This document shows, in pieces, positions 7,101 through 39,209 of a stretch of DNA of 64,000 nt. This DNA comes from Pecten maximus (taxonomy: Eukaryota). The notes under the pieces were generated by a model. That model was not told the DNA's origin, did not search any database, and was given only the letters and a program-made list of their open reading frames with translations. Location of the stretch: positions 23,808,001 to 23,872,000 of the forward strand of contig NC_047030.1 of assembly GCF_902652985.1 (NCBI RefSeq). The letters are read 5' to 3'. Within the stretch, counting starts at the first letter, position 1, and every line of letters starts with the position of its first letter. The position numbers were made by a program, and so were the translations under genes.

Positions 7101-10100
7101 AGTACAACATATGTGTTCAATGTTTTATCTCCTTTATCTAGTTTTCTATCATATACTTCAACACCTCTAGCGATGTGAACGTGATCGCCTCTAACGTTTT
7201 CCCAGAAAAATCAATCAAACGAATACTTAAATGTTTGTAAAAATTATATAGACACATACTAATGGTTTATGTTACCTGTGGGCATTTATATTGATTTTTC
7301 TCAGTCGAGAGCTGGCAATCTGTAACAAAGTCTCATTCGAGGTTTGGACGGCAATGAAATGTTGTTTGGTGAAGGTTTCTCCTTAAATGTGTGCATAAAA
7401 CTGCATTTAGTGCGTATAAACCATTTCTATTTTCGAAAGGGTTTATATTTTCGACCAAATTACCTCCCTTTTGGTTTACGCGACAGGCAATTTAAAAGGA
7501 CGTCATTTTGATTATGACGTTACTTTAAGCAAAATGTCACGTAAACGTTCAAGATAGATCAGATGAGACAGAAAACCTAGCACTGGGACTAGCGAGTAGA
7601 GATGTCTCATGTCTCATTAACGAGAAATACTTGAATCCACGCATATTAATACTTGGAAAGGGTTCTGAGAACTATAACCCGCAATTCAGACACCAGTTAT
7701 TTATTTGTTAATAAGTTACGCTTGCGCATACTATCACTATAACATAAACTAGTAATCAAGCAAAGCATTTCATTTCCCTATTTAGCTTCTTTTAAAACAT
7801 TTCTTTCGTGGTATTGAGTAAAGACAAGTCATGACGCACAGAGTTGCTTCCAACTTTGCATTCTTCTCTCTTTGTCACGCGTCTGCCATACGTTTTATAA
7901 ATTGTAAGTAGGCTTAGCGCGACTCATTTGGAGATTATGTTCCAACCTTTTCAAATCTAGGCTATGCAGTCAAGGGAAGATCCATAGAAGTGGAACATCT
8001 ATCCAATCTCACTTCCTCCATGGACACTAGTGATATTTTGGCCGACCTGTTACGGTAACGCTCACATGCATTACTGAGTGTTTCTCTTTGACACTTATTC
8101 AATACGCTGTATGTTGAACTATCATTAATTCATATGAATAAATATCATTCTTGGTGTAAGTTTTGTTATTGTTTAACTCCTATTAAACCTTTTTAATTAT
8201 TAATAACACCAAGAAAGAGGATGAAGGTATCATTATATGTTTATAATTTATGTTGGTTTCATCTCATTCTTTCAGGAATTTCTTTCCAGACAATCTCATT
8301 GAGGCCACGTTTCTACAGGTAGGTCCAACACTATAACAGAGCCCAAACGTGTTATATGTATCTATACTTATCTCGTTTAACTGTAGTTACTCCCCTTCCA
8401 ATATAAATATACCCTAGGATTATTTTTAATGATTAGTAAAAAATGCTGATAATGAATGGCATATCGACTTAATATATCATTCTTTACTGATAAAGAACCG
8501 ATAGTTTCCCATAAGTGTTTACAATCTGATTGAAATACATCTCTTCAATACGCTTACGCTAAGCGTATTGATGAGATATATTTTAATCAGATTGAAGTGT
8601 TTATGTAATATCTTATACCTTAGACAATTATGTAAGTACTAAGTGATATGTATAATCACAACTAAACACATTTTAGTTAATTTCACAGTTTTAAGGTGAA
8701 AAACGTGTATGTCCACATTAGTCTAAACTGAAGTCGATATGAATATCATTTGATTAATTTAATATATGTGTTTTGATTCATTTTTTTGTTTATGTCAAAT
8801 TTATTGTGTAACTATAACCTTGAAATGCCTTTCACAAGGATAAACACCCCTTTCCGATATCTGACATCCACATTTCAGACGCAGACAACTTACAGTGTAG
8901 AGATATCTGTTCAATCACAGATAACAGTTAACCGAACTTCTCTTAATGACACAAGGATACGACGCCTGACAACGGTCAGAAGTCCAAATATCTTAGGTAA
9001 ACATGACGAATTTATTAATTTTTATATAAACTCCACAGCTCTAATACGGCATTTATTTTTTTATTTTTTTTTTTTTTTTTTTATTCCTGGCACAGATCTT
9101 TTGTTTTTTCTTACAAAGTAATGGTAGAAAAGACACACAGTTGAATACACAGTTGTACTTTTACATATGACTTTAATTATTAGCTCACTTGGTCCGAATA
9201 AACGGTCCGTCCGTCCCCTGTCATCATATCTTTTACATCGCTACTACTCCTGAACGCCCGAATGAACTTTGATAAAATTTGGTCTGGATCCTTATTAGGC
9301 AAAGAAGATATAATGTAGTATAAACGGAGGGTGTGTCACCGTTGGGGCCGGAGAGACAGGGCTCAATAACGGGAAATCATTGAAATCCCTACTAGTCCAG
9401 AAAGACTAAGTGAGTTTAATGAAATTTGGTCTGGAGCATAATTTTGCAAATGGAGATTTAAGGTTGTGTAAACTGAAGGTGTGACTCCCCCGGGACCGGA
9501 TGCACTATTGGGCGTACACCTGTACATGTACCTGTCCTTCTAGGATTCGTTAGTGATGCTAGGGTGGATACAGGGATAAGGAAATCAAAAAGGTCCTAAG
9601 CCAGTGTTAAAATATAGAAAGGGAGGCACATTACACCATAATTGATACATTTAAATAAATCATTCCAAGCAACAACAAAAAAATGTGCATTCAAAATAAC
9701 ACAAGACCTTCTGTAGTTAATGAATAAATATTCAATCTATTAATTCCAGTCAATTTAAGATATTTTTTATTCGATTTTATCAGGATTGGTGGTGGTATGC
9801 ACTTTGTTTGGGATAGCTTCTGGCGTCCTTCGTGACGTCGGTAAACCCTTCAAAGCTTTCGTTGATGCTGCAAGTGAAATCATAATGCAGGTTCTGAGAT
9901 GGATCATGTGGTAATGTGTTTGCTTTGGTGCCAAACCTATCATATAATGAAATGAGAATGAAAAATGAATATATTGTTGTTGAAATTGAGTATTTTCAAA
10001 AGGTCAATAAATACTCTTACTTCTAGCTTTAGTTCATTCTTACAGTTACATAAGTTAAACACTCACTGAAAACAACTTAAAAATAAACGCATTAAACGTC

Positions 10101-13100
10101 TATTTTGCAAAAAGAATTTATATTACACAACGCATTAGAAACTTTTTTATTTTGTATGTGTATCCTTCTTTGTATGTGCTAGATATAAAACGATGTACTT
10201 TGTTTTTCCTAGGTTGACGCCCATTGGAGTGGCAAGTCTAATCGCTAAGACCATATGCGCTGCTGACAACATATCAGAAGACTTCCAGAAGTTAGGCATG
10301 TTCATCTTAGCGGCTACAACAGGAATGACTGTATGTGGTCTGATAATACCCATCAGCTACCTCCTTTTACGGAGGGCAAATCCGTTTACCTTTCTGTTGT
10401 CTCTTTCCCAGCCGATCCTGATGGCATTTGCAACAGCAAATTCGTATGTATCTTTCTAATAGTATACTTCTGTATATCTAATGAAAAGTATGTATATCAA
10501 TATATATTTAAATGTAGGGATATATATATTCGTGTATGGTTTAGTTTCAAAACCTCATTCATATGATGTGTCTTAAAGAGCTGTACGGGCTCATGACGTA
10601 TGTACGTGATAGGGATCACGGATTTAAAAATCGCGTCTTCAGAATATTGCAAACACCCGTCTGAGATTAATAAACGCTATTTGTATGTATAAGGCTCAGT
10701 AAAACCAAGTTTATGTAAAAATGTACAGTAGATCGTGCTAGACAATGTAACAAACTTTGCCTGTAGCCTGCTCGGCATGTGCGATATCATAGAACATCCA
10801 TGTTCCCGGCTATCAACTCTATATCATGTGATCACCCAATGTGTTGGTATCTTTCTTTTAGATGTTTTGTTTGAGGTTTGCGTTGTTTTGTGTATTGTTG
10901 TGTGTGATGTTTTGTGCGACCTTTTTGCGTGACGTTTCGATTGACGTCTAGTGTGTAATATCGTGTGGCGTTTTGTTTTGTTTTTATGACTTTCTGTATA
11001 TTGTTTTGTGTGGTATTGTGTGTATTGTTTTGTGTGGTATTGTGTGTATTGTTTTGTGTGGTATTGTGTGTATTGTTTTGTGTGGAATTGTGTGTATTGT
11101 TTTGTGTGACGTTTTGTGTGGTATTGTGTGTATTGTTTTGTGTGATATTGTGTGTATTGTTTTGTGTGATATTGTGTGTTTTGTTTTGTGTATTATTTTG
11201 TGTGACTTTTAGTGTGGTGTTTTGTATATTATTTTGTGTGACTTTTCGTGTGCCGTTTTGTATGACTGGTATGGTTTATTGAGCGTAACGTTTTGCAGTG
11301 TTTTCTGGGTTGGTATGCGTGCCGTTTCGTATGACGTTTTCTGTGACATTTTATTCAATGTTTTATGTGATATTTCTGTTCCAGACCGATCACTATGCCT
11401 GCTGTGATGACTATTCTAGAGACCGAACATGCTGTAGACAAGAGGGTATCACGATTTGTTATGCCATTTGTAATGACGCTAAGCCGATCGGGCACTGCCT
11501 TCTACATCGCCGTGTCGTCCATCTTTGTCTGCCAGATGCTAGGGACCACTCTTAACGCACCTACGGTCATGCTCATATGGTAAGCATTGATTGTGTGTGA
11601 CGACATCAACGGATTTGATTAATGGTTCATTCTCTTCCTGGTCGGCAATCTCTTATCCTGTATGTCGTCATCATGTTTCGGATATGAATGCATTTTTGGC
11701 TATGCATCTTCTACAATAAACGTCAAAGAATAATAGTTTTACCATACGTTNNNNNNNNNNNNNNNNNNNNNNNNNNNNNNNNNNNNNNNNNNNNNNNNNN
11801 NNNNNNNNNNNNNNNNNNNNNNNNNNNNNNNNNNNNNNNNNNNNNNNNNNNNNNNNNNNNNNNNNNNNNNNNNNNNNNNGTATGCTGTATGCTATGTATT
11901 CTATATATGTTATGAATGCTATGTAAGATACAGTCAGATAAAAGGTTACCCTATATACGTAATATAGATCAAAGCTTTACTGAATGGTTTTTCTACGTTT
12001 CGATATCACATATTACAAACCTTTCCGTTTCGTTTGAAGTCTTTTAACAACAATAACATCTACTGGAATGCCTCCCGTTCCCTCCTCTGCACTGATGGGG
12101 GTAATCATTGTTGTGGCAGCTCTCAATATACCGACCGAGGCAGTCACTCTGCTTTACACATTCGACTGGCTTTTGTGAGTATTATTTATTATCGCCTATG
12201 GTCCTTACCCTTATGATATACGATGTTTTAGACAATTTCCCAGTGACATGCATCCATACGCTGCAATTGGAAACAAAAAGATACATTTGATGTTTATTAA
12301 TATTCCGTTAGAGCGTGATGAAAATCTGTGTATCCATATAGCTTTTACACACACAAACATATGGCGGATAGTCAAGTGTTCGTTCTGCTGGAACAAAATT
12401 GTTTCTCACGAAATATGAAAGGAGTGTTGAGCATACCAAATGTTAAGCAACTCATCAAGAACGGTCCTCGACTTTTATTAGTATTATCCAAAAGAAAATA
12501 TGATATAATCGTCACTATACGATGGCTTGAATGTACACAAAAATACACAAACTAAATTCTACAAAATTATAAAATACAGACTCAATACAAATATATATCA
12601 AATCTTAGAGAACGAGCAAATAAAGGGGTCCTGATAGAATATGTGCCACATCAACCACATATATTGAAAATAGATTTATTTTCGAGCGCGTTTAATTTTC
12701 GCGTATTTGACAGGTGTTTCGAATTCGCGAAAATTAATCGCCGCGAAAAAGTATAAATCACAGATACAGTATGTTTTCTATGACTGTAAATGGCGACAAT
12801 AAATCGCCGCGTAAGGCATGAAAACGCGGATTTAAGTCCCCGCAAAAATAAGCTGATTTACAGTAATGCACGTGTGCACCCCTCGTATGTCCTCCGTCAG
12901 CTGTTATATATCAGTATCAGTTTATAGAAAATCTTACTATCACAATCTCAGTGTTTTTACTGGTTTTCAAACGTAACGATATTTATTTTACTTTTACAGA
13001 GACCGTATACGAACCATCGTGAATTTGATGTTCCAAGCATTTGCAGCAATACTGACACAGGATCTATGTGGGAAATATCTGCCGTCTCTTCCTGGTGATA

Positions 13101-13138
13101 ATGATGTGTTTCGAAAGTTTGACAAAGACATTCCCTAA
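1181..13138 (+). CDS. SLC1 / excitatory amino acid transporter family protein, 11 coding exons, 477 aa, divergent ion-binding motifs
   Basis: Exons 1181-1334, 5439-5513, 6532-6654, 7961-8054, 8276-8318, 8879-8996, 9784-9910, 10213-10443, 11385-11579, 12040-12174, 13000-13138. All GT-AG with compatible phases; 1434 nt open to TAA. Family motifs: GELYLRILKMMIVPLII, ADLLRNFFPDNLIEATF, PNILGLVV, WIMWLTPIGVASLIA, AFATANS, VDKRVSRFVMP, FDWLLDRIRT. Confidence 0.93.
1530..2560. repeat. Degenerate AATAC/AATAT-type low-complexity repeat in SLC1 intron 1
   Basis: Recurrent TATTATACAATAGAATACAATATAATG units. Explains the Y/C/I-rich ORFs at 1483-1901. Confidence 0.9.
3718..3875. mobile_element. Small foldback/MITE-like element
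   Basis: About 60-bp imperfect inverted repeats (AAAAGGACTCTGC...CTGACTAATTTTACGAATGGTTATGGTA and its reverse complement). Right end reads ...GGTGGACTA. No clear TSD. Confidence 0.6.
4028..4245 (+). mobile_element. tRNA-derived SINE, V-domain type
   Basis: A box TGGCCGAGTGG, B box GAGTTCGAAAC, central TTCTCCGGGTACTCCGGCTTTCCTCCAC, A-rich tail. Closely similar to the copies at 5119 and 24139. Confidence 0.88.
4838..5355 (-). mobile_element. tRNA-derived SINE, CORE type, interrupted by a V-type SINE
   Basis: Minus strand: head GCTCAGTCGGTTAGAG|CACCGGCCACG, CORE-like GTCCTTGGATAGCACACTTTACCCTAATTGCT, tail AAATGACCCTTGCTGTT...AAAC. Related copies near 16650, 21380, 30860 and 47620. Confidence 0.8.
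5119..5336 (+). mobile_element. V-type tRNA SINE nested in the CORE-SINE head
   Basis: Full head, core and tail; flanked by direct repeat CTCTAACCG (5113-5121 and 5337-5345). Confidence 0.9.
6030..6432. mobile_element. Interspersed repeat fragments: HINE-like body plus a CACTCGTG-containing hairpin element end
   Basis: CGTCCGTCGTCC start, and GAAATTTGGTCTGGATC / AAACGGAGGGTGTG units shared with 9178-9500. Hairpin GTATGACAGAATAT...ATATTCTGTCATAC near 6323-6392. Confidence 0.55.
8522..8594. mobile_element. 73-bp palindromic micro-element with 9-bp TSD (CAATC family)
   Basis: 35-bp arms with 3 mismatches and loop CGC. Flanked by AAGTGTTTA at 8513-8521 and 8595-8603. Confidence 0.9.
9178..9500 (+). 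mobile_element. HINE/pearl-like non-autonomous element, partial
   Basis: Begins TATTAGCTCAC, then CGTCCGTCC microsatellite. Internal repeated AAATTTGGTCTGGA units are shared with 6030-6310. Confidence 0.6.
10860..11370. repeat. (TTGTG)-rich degenerate 24-bp minisatellite in SLC1 intron 8
   Basis: Units TATTGTTTTGTGTGGTATTGTGTG. Explains the VLFC-type ORFs. Confidence 0.9.
12670..12865. mobile_element. Mariner/pogo-type MITE remnant
   Basis: TTTCGCG/CGCGAAA motifs and right end TTTACAG-TA. Same style as 22835-23064 and 59907-60111. Confidence 0.55.
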
Positions 13139-13164
13139 TATCAATCAGTCTATCGAAATACATA

Positions 13165-25318: not shown

Positions 25319-25772
25319 ATATTTGTTCCGGTGATACACTGACGTAACGTTTCCGGACCGCATACTCTCTTCCGCTTTGTAATCGAGCAAAGTTCAAATC
25401 AGCACTTGATCTACCAATCGCAACATCTCGGGGAAATTTCCCCGAGATGTTGCGATTGTTGATCTATAGGATCCGTCAGTAACCATAACAACGGCATTTC
25501 GAAGAAATTTTATTGTATTCCGTCTCAACCATCCTGTCACGTTGACATTTTCGTGGGATACGCAAAATGGACGATTCCATTTGTTTCGGTGCCTCGAATA
25601 CATAGCGTATACATAACATGTTGTCAAGTAACTGGTGAACATTGGGAAGACAACAGCAAAGAGTGACAGGTCTATGAAAATCACAATGAATATTAATGTC
25701 GTTTTATACAATAATTTACTATTACATGTAAGTTTACAGAAAGTAGTCGTTGTGTCACACACTCAAATGTGC
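25319..25772 (-). pseudogene. Candidate disrupted exon of an unidentified type II membrane protein
   Basis: Bounded by acceptor TTTGTATAG and donor GTAAGT. Contains a hydrophobic segment (LIFIVIFIDLSLFAVVFPMF) and an NVT sequon. The frame stays open to the donor only if the 53-bp insertion is removed. No good ATG; family not recognised. Confidence 0.4.
25415..25458. mobile_element. 44-bp perfect palindrome with 9-bp TSD (CAATC family)
   Basis: CAATCGCAACATCTCGGGGAAA|TTTCCCCGAGATGTTGCGATTG. Flanks TTGATCTAC (25406-14) and TTGATCTAT (25459-67). Confidence 0.88.
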
Positions 25773-26865
25773 CTATACAAACAGGTAAAATTTAAAAAAA
25801 AATAGCATATCTTGCAGTTGAAATGCAAAAAAGGACATGACATCTACGTTCATTTGTATAGGTTAAATAGCCTTAATTAGTTAAGGTTATAAAGAGTGTT
25901 TAAAATTAATATTTTGATTATTATATTATTTAAATTTATGTCATTAAAAGTTGTCTCTGTCAATACTCGAGTAATTCAACTTGACAGCAAGGACGACGGC
26001 AACGATGGAATGTAAAATTGAGAAGACAAAAAAAAATGAAGGATTTTTTTTAAAGGAAGAAAAACATACAACAAATACCAACAACCCAAAAATGCGCACA
26101 TAGCATACCAACATTTTCATATATATATTTTTTTCTTATTATTTATTTTAAAGGGAAAACAAAGCTTACCAGGAATCGAACTTGTTACACCTATACCAGT
26201 ACTCACTGACGTCACAACTTGCTCATCATGACTGATTCGTCAAAAATCTCGAGCATCGATTAAAATGTTGTATATACACATATATAATATACCTATTCGT
26301 GCATTCATCCCCTCATGAATATCGACTCGTCTGCCAATCAAAAGTCAACAAGACACGTCGCTCTGGTGGAATTATAACTATATACTCTTACAAACGATTG
26401 TTATTAGAACACTATCTTTTTTTCATTTGTTGGTGTTAATTGGATAGATTTCATGCCTTGCCGTGGGTGCAAGTATCTTTGTGACAGGCAGTGTAAAGGC
26501 TGTCGGCACTGTAGCTTCTTAAAATGATTATTGTGTGGTAGAATTGTGGTATCTGGCAAGAAATCTAATATTTTATAAAATATATATTTTAAACCATCGT
26601 TATCAATGGATAAATGTAAATTAAATTAACATTTTGTATCATTTGAAATAACTATAGTATACCTTCAATGTATCCAAATTACATACCTGGATTCTTAAAG
26701 GGGTCTAGTTTAACAATAAAGCAGAAGGAATAACAGGATGATTGGTACTATATGATCAGGAACACATCAAGAGTCACAGCCGAATACCATTCCTTCTCGT
26801 AGCATTGCTAAACTTGTCTCGGCCTGAACCTCGATCTCATAAGCATTTTGATGTCTTGCACATCC

Positions 26866-26982
26866 CAATCTAATTAAAATTAGACTTGTAATTTCCGTTC
26901 CTCTACGATACACTGCAATACAAGTTGTATTGTAGTGTATCGTAGAGGAACGGAAATTACAAGTCTAATTTTAATTAGATTG
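26866..26982. mobile_element. 117-bp palindromic micro-element with 9-bp TSD (CAATC family)
   Basis: 58-bp arms, 1 mismatch, 1-nt loop. TGCACATCC at 26857-65 and 26983-91. Confidence 0.93.
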
Positions 26983-27132
26983 TGCACATCCCGACAAGAA
27001 CTCATCAAGTTCGGCAGTAACGAATGATATGCACCCTTGTCTATTTACAGGGTGTAGTTTGAGCGATTGGAAATAAAACATACCTTTTTACACTCGCATT
27101 TTCAGTACATCGCATGTTACAATGAACTTGAT

Positions 27133-31050: not shown

Positions 31051-34000
31051 CCGTACCTCCTATCTAAATCGTTAACAACATAAACAACAACATTGTTAGC
31101 AACATTTTTGTAAAAGTTCTTAAAGTTAATGGAACTCGTCCAAATTTGTTGGGGTTTTTTTTCTAGTCTTACCAAGTTATTTCACCAATCACAGAAATAT
31201 CATATAACATCGCATATAAATATGTAGTGTTCAATTCTCTATTCCTATTTCACTTTGAAAAATGCTTCGTAAAATTGATGGGATTTTTGTGACAAATTTC
31301 AGAAATATCTTATCAAATCAAAGCGAATTTTAAAATCTTTACCAAACGTATCAAGAAATTTACTAAACATCACAAAAACATGTTGTCCGTGGAATATGGT
31401 ATTATCGGGTAGTCTTGATTTTTAACATTGCTTTATAACATTGCTTTATAACATTGCTTTATAACATTGCTTTATGGTGTTGAACAATGAGTGGGAAATA
31501 CGTAGTTACAGTAGATATTGAATTTAGTTTAAACAGTATTTATTTATATTTAATACAAATGTACATATACATTGCAAATTGTACATTGGTGAGGGATCTA
31601 GAAACAAGCTTAAAGCTTATATTGAATTTGATGATTAATAATTATCTGACGTATTCAAAGTGACCCATTCAACATTTTGTAATCTCAATTCCATTCACTT
31701 GACTGTAGATACACTCTAGAATAATGTTTCAAATAATGACGTCATTTGAGTCGCTCAGAAAATACATATTAAAAAAAATGCATTTATCAAGATTTGTTTT
31801 GGGAAGTTCCTCTAGTCAATAGATTACAGCAAAGATACGCCTTCAGATACTGTGAGCGTACGTATTTTAGCGGTCAGACTATTTTTAACGATTTTTGCGT
31901 TAGTAGCATCGCGCTAATTGAAGTGTCTGTACATTGTTTTCAATGGTAAGATTGGTGTTTGCGATAATTCAACATTGCGTGAATCTTTTATTTAATTGTG
32001 TTACGTGCTGATAAGAAAAATGGTAATACGTTCTGTAATATCATTAACCACATGTAGTATATCGTTGTCTTATANNNNNNNNNNNNNNNNNNNNNNNNNN
32101 NNNNNNNNNNNNNNNNNNNNNNNNNNNNNNNNNNNNNNNNNNNNNNNNNNNNNNNNNNNNNNNNNNNNNNNNNNNNNNNNNNNNNNNNNNNNNNNNNNNN
32201 NNNNNNNNNNNNNNNNNNNNNNNNNNNNNNNNNNNNNNNNNNNNNNNNNNNNNNNNNNNNNNNNNNNNNNNNNNNNNNNNNNNNNNNNNNNNNNNNNNNN
32301 NNNNNNNNNNNNNNNNNNNNNNNNNNNNNNNNNNNNNNNNNNNNNNNNNNNNNNNNNNNNNNNNNNNNNNNNNNNNNNNNGTTACTGACATCATGGAGTC
32401 TTTTTTTAATTCCAGGAGACACAATGTGCAATTACATACCAACAGCTGATCCGTACCATGTGTTAGCAATACACGGTAGGTGTTATCATATGGTACAGGA
32501 CGCCATCACCTGGACAGAAGCTACCACCAGATGTCGTGCCAGGAATGGTACACTTGCAATCGTTCGGGACTCGGAAACAAATAAACTACTTATTCAGAGA
32601 GCTATGGATCTAGATCTTAATGACAAAGCAGAGGTGTCTTTTTACTGGATTGGAGGAAGTATTCAAACAACGGGAGCCGCAATCACGTGGCAGCGAGGTA
32701 AGAACTCACTCCCTGCTCCCATTTACCCAAATATGGAGGTTTACTTCTGAGTTTGATTTCGTTATGACGATTTGTCAAAGTTTTATACGATGAACCGAAA
32801 TGTGATTACTCAAGTTTTCTTTTGACTTGGATGTGCTCAAATAATACTCTTTATTTTCTTTTCTTTTTTATTTGTTTACATACACACAGGCAAAATGTCT
32901 TGAGGTCAATTTGACCTGAAAATATTGGCCTGAAATTTACCTGAATTCGACCTGAATTGACATGAAAACATTTTGCCTGTGTAAGATTATAAAGAATTCT
33001 AAATGATACAAGCATAGCGATAAAACATGTCTATAGCTTAATATTAAATAAGTGTGTACTACATTCATTCTTTATAGTTTTTTTCAGAACAAATGATATT
33101 TTTGAGCTGTTATAAATTCCAGAGTAAATTCTAACAATAACCAAATGTAAGGGGTAGGTGTTTTTGGTGTAGCTATGTCATTATCACGTACTATTTTTAT
33201 TTCGAGTAGGTGTAGAAATAGCCCGAGTTTCCTCTCGGGCTAGTGTATTTTACTTCAATCTTCCTTTGGCTTCAACGAAGTCCTGATCAGGTGATTTTGA
33301 TAAGACGGTGTTCAAAAATACATATGATATCATTAGACATGTTTTGGTACAGTAAAGTCCCAATAATTCTGTGTTTAAAGTAGAAAGCTTTCTCGTGTTT
33401 TAATTGAAATGTTCAATATGTTTCAGACATAAATGGCGATGAAGTCACTAACCCCTTTACTGCCTTTTTGGACGGTGAACCCGTGGGTTCTGGATCTAAT
33501 GGGTGTTTACTTCTGGATCCCTCGGAAATGGGCTGGGCAACGGATTTCTGTAATGTCTCCCTCGAACTCACCGGTTACGTTTGTGAACTCGCCAGTGGTA
33601 CGTATAGATTGGTTACATTATATATATTTCGATGAATATATCTTGCATTGATCATTGTTTATTGGACGTGGTGTGCGGCTAGGTTAACAAGGATGGATAG
33701 TATTGCAACAGCAATACAAAGTCCCCTGCCTGATCTAGAAGTGCACCTATTCATTTCCCATTTGTTTTTGGAAAAATGGTTTTTCGAAAAAAAAAATGTG
33801 GGATGCACAACTACATGTTATACTGGTCATGTATACCAAGTTTCGTTAAGATCGAAGTAGTACTTTAGGAGGAGTTGTCCGGACAACTACTGCGTGACAG
33901 ACAGACGGACGGACGGACGGACGGACGGACGGACGGAGGGTAAACCTATAGTCCCCCCGTTTTTCAAACGGCAGGGGACTAATAAGCACTGCAGCTGCTA

Positions 34001-37716: not shown

Positions 37717-39209
37717 TTAAACAGACCTATTTTCAACTCTATTTTCTAAAATCTATACCGTATATTAAATTGTAGAGATAATTATTTTAGGTAGTTAAGC
37801 TTTATGTGCCAAATAAGGATATCACCCTTTAAATGTTTAGATAAGAACGTATCCGATGTCGGTTCATTGCACTAAGATACTAGTGTCTCGTGAAGCGTAG
37901 CGCAGTGCAGTCAACCGTGGGTCTCCGTCGATGATCATCCGGAACTCTTCGGGTTTTTTTTCAATATTTTTGAAAGAAAAAAAAACAAGGAGTTCCAGAT
38001 GCGTCGATGATCACCCATCAGTCAGCCGCATCTAGCTGCGGTTGCCTTTCTATTGGTACGTCCAAATATAAAACAATAATAAATATGTTATCATAAATAA
38101 TAATAATTTCACAACAGAAAACAGAAGTGCCGATGGGGTGAAATGAAATGACAATGAATGCATTTACTTTCTACGAGCACCTGGTACTACAAAAATGACA
38201 ACAGTCAATGGGAAGTAACTCCAATCGTGATTTTTGTCCGCTATTTGTCGATGAGCAACTCCAAACCATTCGGATTAAAATTGGCATATTGCATTAAGAA
38301 GACAACTTCCACATCTCACAAAGTAGCTACCAAGTCGTCACATTCAATAAGGACAAGACTATAAAGACTAACGAAGATTAAAAAAGACTATTGTTTAAAC
38401 TCAATTTTGAGCTTATTCAAACTCAAAATTGAGATTAAATAACAGTTCTGTATCGTTTCTTTTGCTTTTAATGATTTAGTATAAAGAAATCTTGACATGG
38501 CAAGACGACCGTTTTGAAGGAAAATTGTTCAACCGCTGACTTTGAAGAAAAATATTCATATTTCTGAAAAAGGACACAAGTTCCACAGTATAACTATTTG
38601 TTTTGAACACAAATACATTCAAAACAATGAGAAATATTTTTTTTATTTTTTCATTTTATTTTATTTTTTATTTGATAATCTGAATGACTTATTCTAATCA
38701 GTGAACAAGGAGAATATAAATCAATGGGATATTGTGAATTAGGAGACTAAGACCTTATGTTCGGGAAGAGTAAGCAAACTTTACTTCATCGTCGCCATAC
38801 AACAGATAAGGACAAGTAATTGTGTACAAAATAATTCGTAAATCAATACTGGAGCAGAAAATGGAGTCGGTAAAGGAGTAGTGGTTCACACCAAGCCTCT
38901 TCGATATAAAAATGTTAACAATTGTCACACTTTCTGAATCAATAGCCGAAGTGTGAGCAACTCTGTTTATTTCTCAAAAACATGAGTGTAGAACGTGACC
39001 CATTTCGTATTATATTTACAACGGGATCACACAAGTTAAATGTTTGTGACTGACTTTTTGAACGTTGTTATTGTTAAAAGAAGGTATTGTGAATATAAGT
39101 AGTAACCTTTTATCTTGTTTAGTTTATGAGATCATCAATAAAATTGAGCACAAGTTAAATACATAATGTAGTCTGTATCTGTATTGTTGACACATTTTAT
39201 CTTAAAACC

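Follow-up and report, generated by a model that had tools for sequence, protein, structure and literature searches.

The 64-kb window analyzed in this study, the whole stretch G000:C16:23808001-23872000 of the 918-Mb Pecten maximus genome, contains ultra-short palindromic elements (hairpins) flanked by target site duplications (TSDs). We hold, with somewhat better than even confidence, that these hairpins are excision footprints, made locus by locus, of AcademH-like DNA transposons that would leave through a 42-59-nt staggered cut whose duplex is unwound by the element's own helicase. The arms of the hairpins are identical to the termini of the parent transposons, they stop at a lineage-specific ceiling inside the terminal inverted repeat (TIR), and their centers are of the end-joining type. 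Element positions below are window coordinates, and elements 1, 2, and 3 represent families 1, 2, and 3.

The initial annotation had reported three hairpins beginning with CAATC and ending with GATTG, and all three were found where it had placed them (Table 1). As it had described, they are near-complete inverted repeats, with 9/73, 0/44, and 3/117 mismatches to their own reverse complements for elements 1, 2, and 3, respectively. The 9-bp TSDs assigned to them were exact (9/9) at elements 1 and 3, but reached only 8/9 at element 2, and across copies the duplication is 9 or 10 bp. The count of three comprised real elements only, but missed a fourth (37936-38001).

The assumption that the elements are multi-copy was borne out, with copies of all three families found elsewhere in the genome. 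The first 17 nt of element 2 occurred exactly 134 + 125 times in G000, compared with 0 times for the reversed control; all of these occurrences were counted and 78 were read in sequence. Element 3 gave 1,038 first-look candidates, 40 of which were scored, and element 1 gave 20 candidates in the genome. Ten shuffled 10-kb stretches yielded no hairpin with a TSD. Since the 17-nt end recurs without reversed-control hits and the shuffled stretches were empty, the hairpins are not products of chance. The TSDs were unrelated 9- or 10-mers among copies, with 11 exact 9-bp, 10 exact 10-bp, five one-mismatch, and seven undetected duplications in 33 short copies of family 2, and five, nine, seven, and five, respectively, in 26 copies of family 3.

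Parent transposons of the hairpin families

The search for long elements with the same ends, which had been suggested as a check, succeeded for families 2 and 3 and led to transposons encoding DUF6589 and a RecQ-like helicase. Searching the genome for DUF6589, with the best 102 of 142 candidates scored, gave 89 matches, one of which falls between two family-2 ends. This family-2 parent (G000:C4:48479210-48490796) is 11,587 bp long, with a 62-bp TIR identical to the element 2 arms and a 10-bp TSD. It carries DUF6589 exons and, on the opposite strand, a DEAD/RecQ-like helicase (DEAD PF00270, E 8e-13; nearest solved structures WRN, RECQ1, and BLM), and it shares 98.6% identity with a further copy on C16. 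A TIR and TSD were located in 11 of 20 further DUF6589 regions, with ends reading CAATC, CAACT, CATCT, TAGTC, or TAGCC, while no convincing pair was found in the other nine. The coding elements, comprising the C4 copy and these 11, have TIRs of 60-382 bp and lengths of 8.6-11.7 kb. Helicase motifs were detected by a simple pattern in six of eight long elements and were also seen in a decayed DUF6589 + helicase element on C10, which carries the family-3 end and whose other end was not found within 20 kb. Derivatives of ~700-930 bp share the family-3 TIR, and it is one of these, of 788 bp, whose ends element 3 matches.

For family 1, the genome searches found no coding parent. Its end matches the coding lineage F over 18 nt and has the same inner landmark, and by this sequence evidence family 1 is taken to be a sister of the coding F lineage. 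We are nearly certain that the arms of families 2 and 3 derive from DUF6589 + helicase transposons, and the same origin is likely for family 1. The initial annotation was right to describe the hairpins as bare transposon ends arranged head to head and drawn from several related lineages. The interval C1:53124207-53134341, considered as a long element, was rejected as two separate short copies without a shared TSD. In the lineage F parents at L298 and L129/L130, a copy of an F-like end lies in an intron region ~1.7 kb inside the coding element and is possibly a nested remnant.

The closest named protein to the parent DUF6589 exon is a 99% identical one from Pecten maximus, and the other named proteins among 14 homologues are from molluscs. 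In all 14, DUF6589 was the only Pfam family at E<=0.01, save one weak unrelated match, and the GDNxD, GGDQLT, and DxxxE motifs were conserved in the alignment. These results bear on the proposed origin from a Mutator-like transposase, for which the 9-bp TSDs typical of Mutator-like elements (MULEs) are a point in favor. However, the parents encode a RecQ-like helicase alongside DUF6589, a MULE Pfam family was missing from 14/14 homologues, and the TSDs measure 9 or 10 bp, so that this origin was abandoned. The related idea that one end was duplicated into a palindrome conflicts with hairpins that hold distinct left- and right-end variants of longer relatives together. We consider MULE or foldback ends, or palindromes from single-end duplication, highly improbable.

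Arm lengths, centers, and the excision reading

In four lineages, the arms stop at a defined position inside the TIR. In family 2 (TIR 62), nine of the 66 arms of 33 short copies end at position 50, three at 49, and none beyond, and the 78 exact ends read comprise 72 that stay within the first 50 bases, two that reach 57/59, and four of full parents; L058 was removed from the 66-arm tally by the terminal-CA filter and is included in the 78-end tally. In lineage F (TIR 84), 35 of 46 ends were no longer than 42 (five of exactly 42), two went on to 43 and 55, and nine were full TIRs; these lengths are ungapped counts because gapped alignment through the internal repeat gives an artifactual 46-47. 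Among 52 family-3 arms (TIR 106), 16 end at 59, eight reach 60-64 via a palindromic AGATCT, and one is part of a hybrid; a family-3 variant with a 10-bp duplication has a shifted arm length and an unchanged landmark. Three family-1 copies have arms ending at 45. The landmark G^ATCT is common to F, family 1, and family 3, and in each lineage folded an internal inverted repeat has its far end 5-6 nt beyond the ceiling, as read by eye. Lineages J, L, and M form hairpins of 50-111 bp with a softer limit at ~45-46. Genome-wide, the J/L/M end pattern had 742 + 807 exact matches, and a lineage L MITE (miniature inverted-repeat transposable element) of 472-481 bp with a 9-bp TSD was observed at L241, L244, L252, and L266 (G000:C1).

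The ceiling speaks against simple loss of the loop from a TIR stem, the collapse invoked by the initial annotation, because such arms would reach the full TIR length. Tandem duplications in these lineages begin at base 1 and mostly do not pass the ceiling, with units of 41 and 49 (ceiling 50), 50 (ceiling 59), and 39-45 (ceiling 45). Minisatellite-like arrays with a unit of the first 44 or 39-45 nt of the family-1 end were observed at L113:4422-5360 (G000:C10) and L198 (G000:C16, near 24957000); closed by a short opposite end, they are apparently tandem repeats born at a transposon end.

The centers showed 0-2-nt microhomology, blunt joins, or short templated inserts. There were 29 distinct centers in 33 family-2 copies and 19 in 34 family-3 loci, and most loci thus have their own junction, unlike a MITE of nearly fixed length, which speaks against the minimal mobile unit first suggested. 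C439 and C465 represent a single locus and were counted once. Of the 13 places at which a diagnostic end variant was found, eight are hairpins and two are complete long elements (784 and 851 bp), and the remaining three are a long copy with one end, a 232-bp hybrid, and a solo end. In seven of the eight subfamily hairpins, this variant is joined to the sequence that forms the opposite end of the long elements, so the hairpins consist of a left end plus a right end. Their centers differ in 8/8 cases, and the commonest junction was found in both polarities. Two hybrids, of 246 and 232 bp, are non-palindromic, with one arm of exactly 59. Judged by these sequences, the left and right ends were most likely joined independently at each locus, and a hairpin may occasionally move.

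A different explanation would be that a single or a few master hairpins in each lineage transpose as mobile palindromic mini-elements, with their centers later eroded by cruciform cleavage. In agreement with this, every copy has its own TSD, a single family-3 junction occurs in 11/34 loci, the 44-bp form is present at two independent loci, and an element-free allele is known. Against it, no intact 50 + 50 form was present among 33 copies, and no intact 42 + 42 form with both ends among the hairpins read. The subfamily centers all differ despite arms mismatched near the center, the same junction appears in both polarities, and hybrids and solo ends terminate at the same base. Moreover, masters centered on a homologous landmark across lineages would themselves require a defined inner break. 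We think it rather unlikely that mobile hairpins account for the data.

The excision reading proceeds from the resemblance of the hairpins to the repair products of P-element excision. In the relevant passages of PMC2895639, this excision is described as leaving 17-nt non-complementary 3′ overhangs, which are end-joined with microhomology or inserted bases while both TIR stubs stay between the TSD copies; passages of PMC10983969 and PMC2577343 likewise give the 17-nt stagger. By analogy, the transposase would make its cut in the transferred strand right at the terminus of the element and cut the other strand 42-59 nt farther in, at the conserved landmark seen as the ceiling. A helicase role is proposed because a duplex of 42-59 nt would not separate unaided; the element's helicase would unwind it and release the element, leaving the donor site with two 3′ overhangs of identical, non-complementary sequence. 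Host end joining would then trim and fuse these between the original TSD copies, as after P-element excision, and in the 44-bp element the overhangs may have annealed at a self-complementary 10-nt word (bases 18-27). The specific proposal that AcademH leaves its donor through a stagger of this length (~3x that of P) that cannot be melted unaided, that its own RecQ-like helicase unwinds it, and that the hairpins locate the inner nick of each lineage with single-base precision, seems to us evenly poised between right and wrong.

The same scars could be produced by flush excision followed by abortive gap repair from the sister chromatid, with synthesis stalling at the internal inverted repeat or at a TIR-bound protein and the nascent ends being joined. 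An internal inverted repeat does fold in single-stranded DNA and has the ceiling within its inner arm, such synthesis is shown to happen by hybrids in which one side is long, and incomplete synthesis with end joining is reported as the usual P outcome in wild-type flies (relevant passages of PMC2895639). However, the family-2 arms pile up at one base (9/66 at 50 and none at 51-62), where stalling would rather be expected to produce a broad tail, no family-2 end pairs spanning 101 bp to ~10 kb were seen among the first 100 places listed, and duplications beginning at base 1 are more simply explained by a staggered break. We rate gap repair, under which the hairpins would still be AcademH-like scars formed per locus but without the long staggered cut, as unlikely.

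Several observations weigh against excision through a long staggered cut. Some junctions recur, one family-3 center in 11/34 loci and family-2 centers three, two, and two times in 33, and clonal spread would give the same pattern. The ceiling has exceptions, including a family-2 arm of 57 (L058), one F end at 43, 7/34 family-3 centers that extend 2-4 nt beyond 59, and a 59-nt terminal duplication on the C16 parent that exceeds the family-2 ceiling. Lineages J, L, and M are represented by only two, eight, and five copies, with a soft limit and arms of 48, 51, and 60. No pair of long-element and hairpin alleles at one TSD was found, with four runs at elements 2 and 3 giving filled alleles and one empty allele. 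Finally, a DDE fold of the DUF6589 protein is putative: the mean predicted local distance difference test (pLDDT) score of its model was 60, confidence was low in the core, and neither a fold nor a profile matched.

Alleles of elements 2 and 3 were checked in contigs of the four runs. The suggested look for an empty site was rewarded in run X5, from a different sample: in one contig, of a diverged haplotype and with a short side of 30 letters, 25414 is connected to 25474 through 20 letters of different sequence and the target is present once; the same run also has a filled element 2 allele. Given this element-free allele, the right TSD copy of element 2 probably lost 2 bp. The second 44-bp copy lies inside a dispersed repeat, and its target is present once in three paralogues of that repeat. 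The contigs also bear on an assembly artifact, in which longer elements would have collapsed at inverted repeats. Among the four runs, no contig covers all of element 2 or 3, which would fit such a collapse. On the other side, contigs of three runs, and likewise one X5 contig, go from unique flank through the element 2 center (to 25440-25441), and the assembly contains short and medium as well as long forms, with centers that differ by locus. We regard an artifact as extremely improbable.

If the excision reading is true, it would provide the first proposed job for the AcademH helicase. The passages of the literature examined do not state what the helicase does in helicase-encoding cut-and-paste transposons, and those of PMC10045372 loosely tie it to TSD length. 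The reading predicts an inner nick at position 50 in the young family-2 lineage (two 98.6%-identical copies) and loss of excision upon helicase inactivation. The hairpins would then tally past excisions, and what repeat libraries list as short palindromic "MITE families" (9/10-bp TSDs) may represent scars rather than mobile units.

Hairpin positions and neighboring features

Table 1. Hairpins of the window with their target site duplications
Feature	Position	Strand	Description
Element 1, left TSD copy	8513..8521	+	9 bp, same as 8595-8603
Element 1 (family 1)	8522..8594	.	~39 + 34 nt from two ends of an older lineage; lineage arm limit at position 45
Element 1, right TSD copy	8595..8603	+	9/9 identity with left copy
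Element 2, left TSD copy	25406..25414	+	Single copy in element-free allele
Element 2 (family 2)	25415..25458	.	Both ends of the 11.6-kb DUF6589 + helicase transposon, joined at a self-complementary 10-nt word, TIR positions 18-27
Element 2, right TSD copy	25459..25467	+	8/9 versus left copy; 2-bp loss likely
Element 3, left TSD copy	26857..26865	+	9 bp
Element 3 (family 3)	26866..26982	.	59 nt (100% identity) from one end + 58 nt (98.3%) from the other end of a 788-bp relative
Element 3, right TSD copy	26983..26991	+	9/9 identity with left copy
Fourth hairpin with TSDs	37926..38011	.	Hairpin 37936-38001, 66 bp, CATC...GATG; exact 10-bp TSD 37926-37935 / 38002-38011

The fourth hairpin likely represents another lineage of the same kind as elements 1-3; its end resembles L360:4914-4977 and family 2. 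Four such elements lie in the 64-kb window, compared with one in an evenly placed sample of 399.5 kb; tandem-repeat matches (L348, L352, the 165-bp match at L360, L362, L384, and 1.7-2.3 kb of the window) were discarded by eye from this comparison. This one sampled hairpin points to a genome total on the order of a few thousand, with wide uncertainty. The window was chosen for its hairpins, but the local excess persists. In a complex rearrangement near 20026700 on G000:C9 (L006/L114), a family-3 hairpin has been doubled into a 259-bp palindrome whose flank is inverted.

A high-copy repeat with very high summed contig depth occupies 26340-26520, in the interval that separates element 2 from element 3. 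An open reading frame with a MADF/Myb-SANT domain (18598-19137, minus strand; E 1e-5) is likely part of a Harbinger-type transposon. A sodium:dicarboxylate symporter (SLC1-like) exon (PF00375) lies at 10139-10459 on the plus strand, and a plus-strand reading frame at ~32400-32750 resembles, by eye, a C-type lectin domain exon.

Comparison with known transposon systems

The hairpins resemble MITEs and foldback elements in being short and non-coding, with inverted ends and a TSD. MITE families are nearly clonal in length, whereas the hairpins vary by locus under a ceiling, and the distinct centers in family 2 (29/33), family 3 (19/34), and the subfamily (8/8) are not those of a clonal MITE. True MITE-like derivatives, of 472-481 and ~700-930 bp, exist in the same lineages. 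The elements differ from Mutator and the MULEs in having a helicase gene and no MULE domain match. Kolobok transposons insert at TTAA, and the TSDs found here are instead unrelated 9/10-mers, so that membership in KolobokH fails. KolobokH is a RecQ helicase-bearing DNA transposon, reported only from fungi in passages of PMC9587614. It is possible that the hairpins are already catalogued in Repbase or Dfam.

AcademH is a lineage of the Academ DNA transposons, reportedly described by Kojima in 2020. The parents found here are similar in having TIRs on a multi-kb coding element, a RecQ-like helicase gene within it, TSDs of 9 or 10 bp, and termini CA or TA, the AcademH rule being YA/TAG. DUF6589 was presumed to be an Academ marker, and no paper stating so was found in the literature searched. 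Of a published Academ HMM, 25 of 465 positions were compared and gave no information on this point. AcademH elements are presented in passages of PMC10045372 as helicase-encoding DNA transposons with 9- or 10-bp TSDs. By TSD, helicase, and architecture, the parents appear to be AcademH-like DNA transposons. Neither hairpin footprints nor a staggered cut were found to be described for Academ in the literature searched, which did not extend to Kojima 2020 and its supplements.

The P superfamily is characterized by THAP, a Tnp_P_element transposase, and 7-8-bp TSDs, and the P element encodes no helicase. No P-type transposase Pfam family was found in the C4 parent or the 14 homologues, and the TSD is 9/10 bp, so that P-superfamily membership fails. 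At the donor site, the two are alike: the P element has a stagger inside the TIR, 3′ overhangs, and end-joined TIR remnants between TSD copies (relevant passages of PMC2895639, PMC10983969, and PMC2577343), and the hairpins show, with exceptions, a fixed inner arm limit, a variable end-joined center, and both TSD copies. The P stagger is 17 nt, whereas that proposed here would be 42-59 nt, lineage-dependent, and set by an internal landmark. The transposons would thus be P-like at the donor site and are not P-superfamily members; the hairpins themselves derive from transposons of a known kind, and what is new and testable is the inferred 42-59-nt stagger and the proposed role of the helicase.

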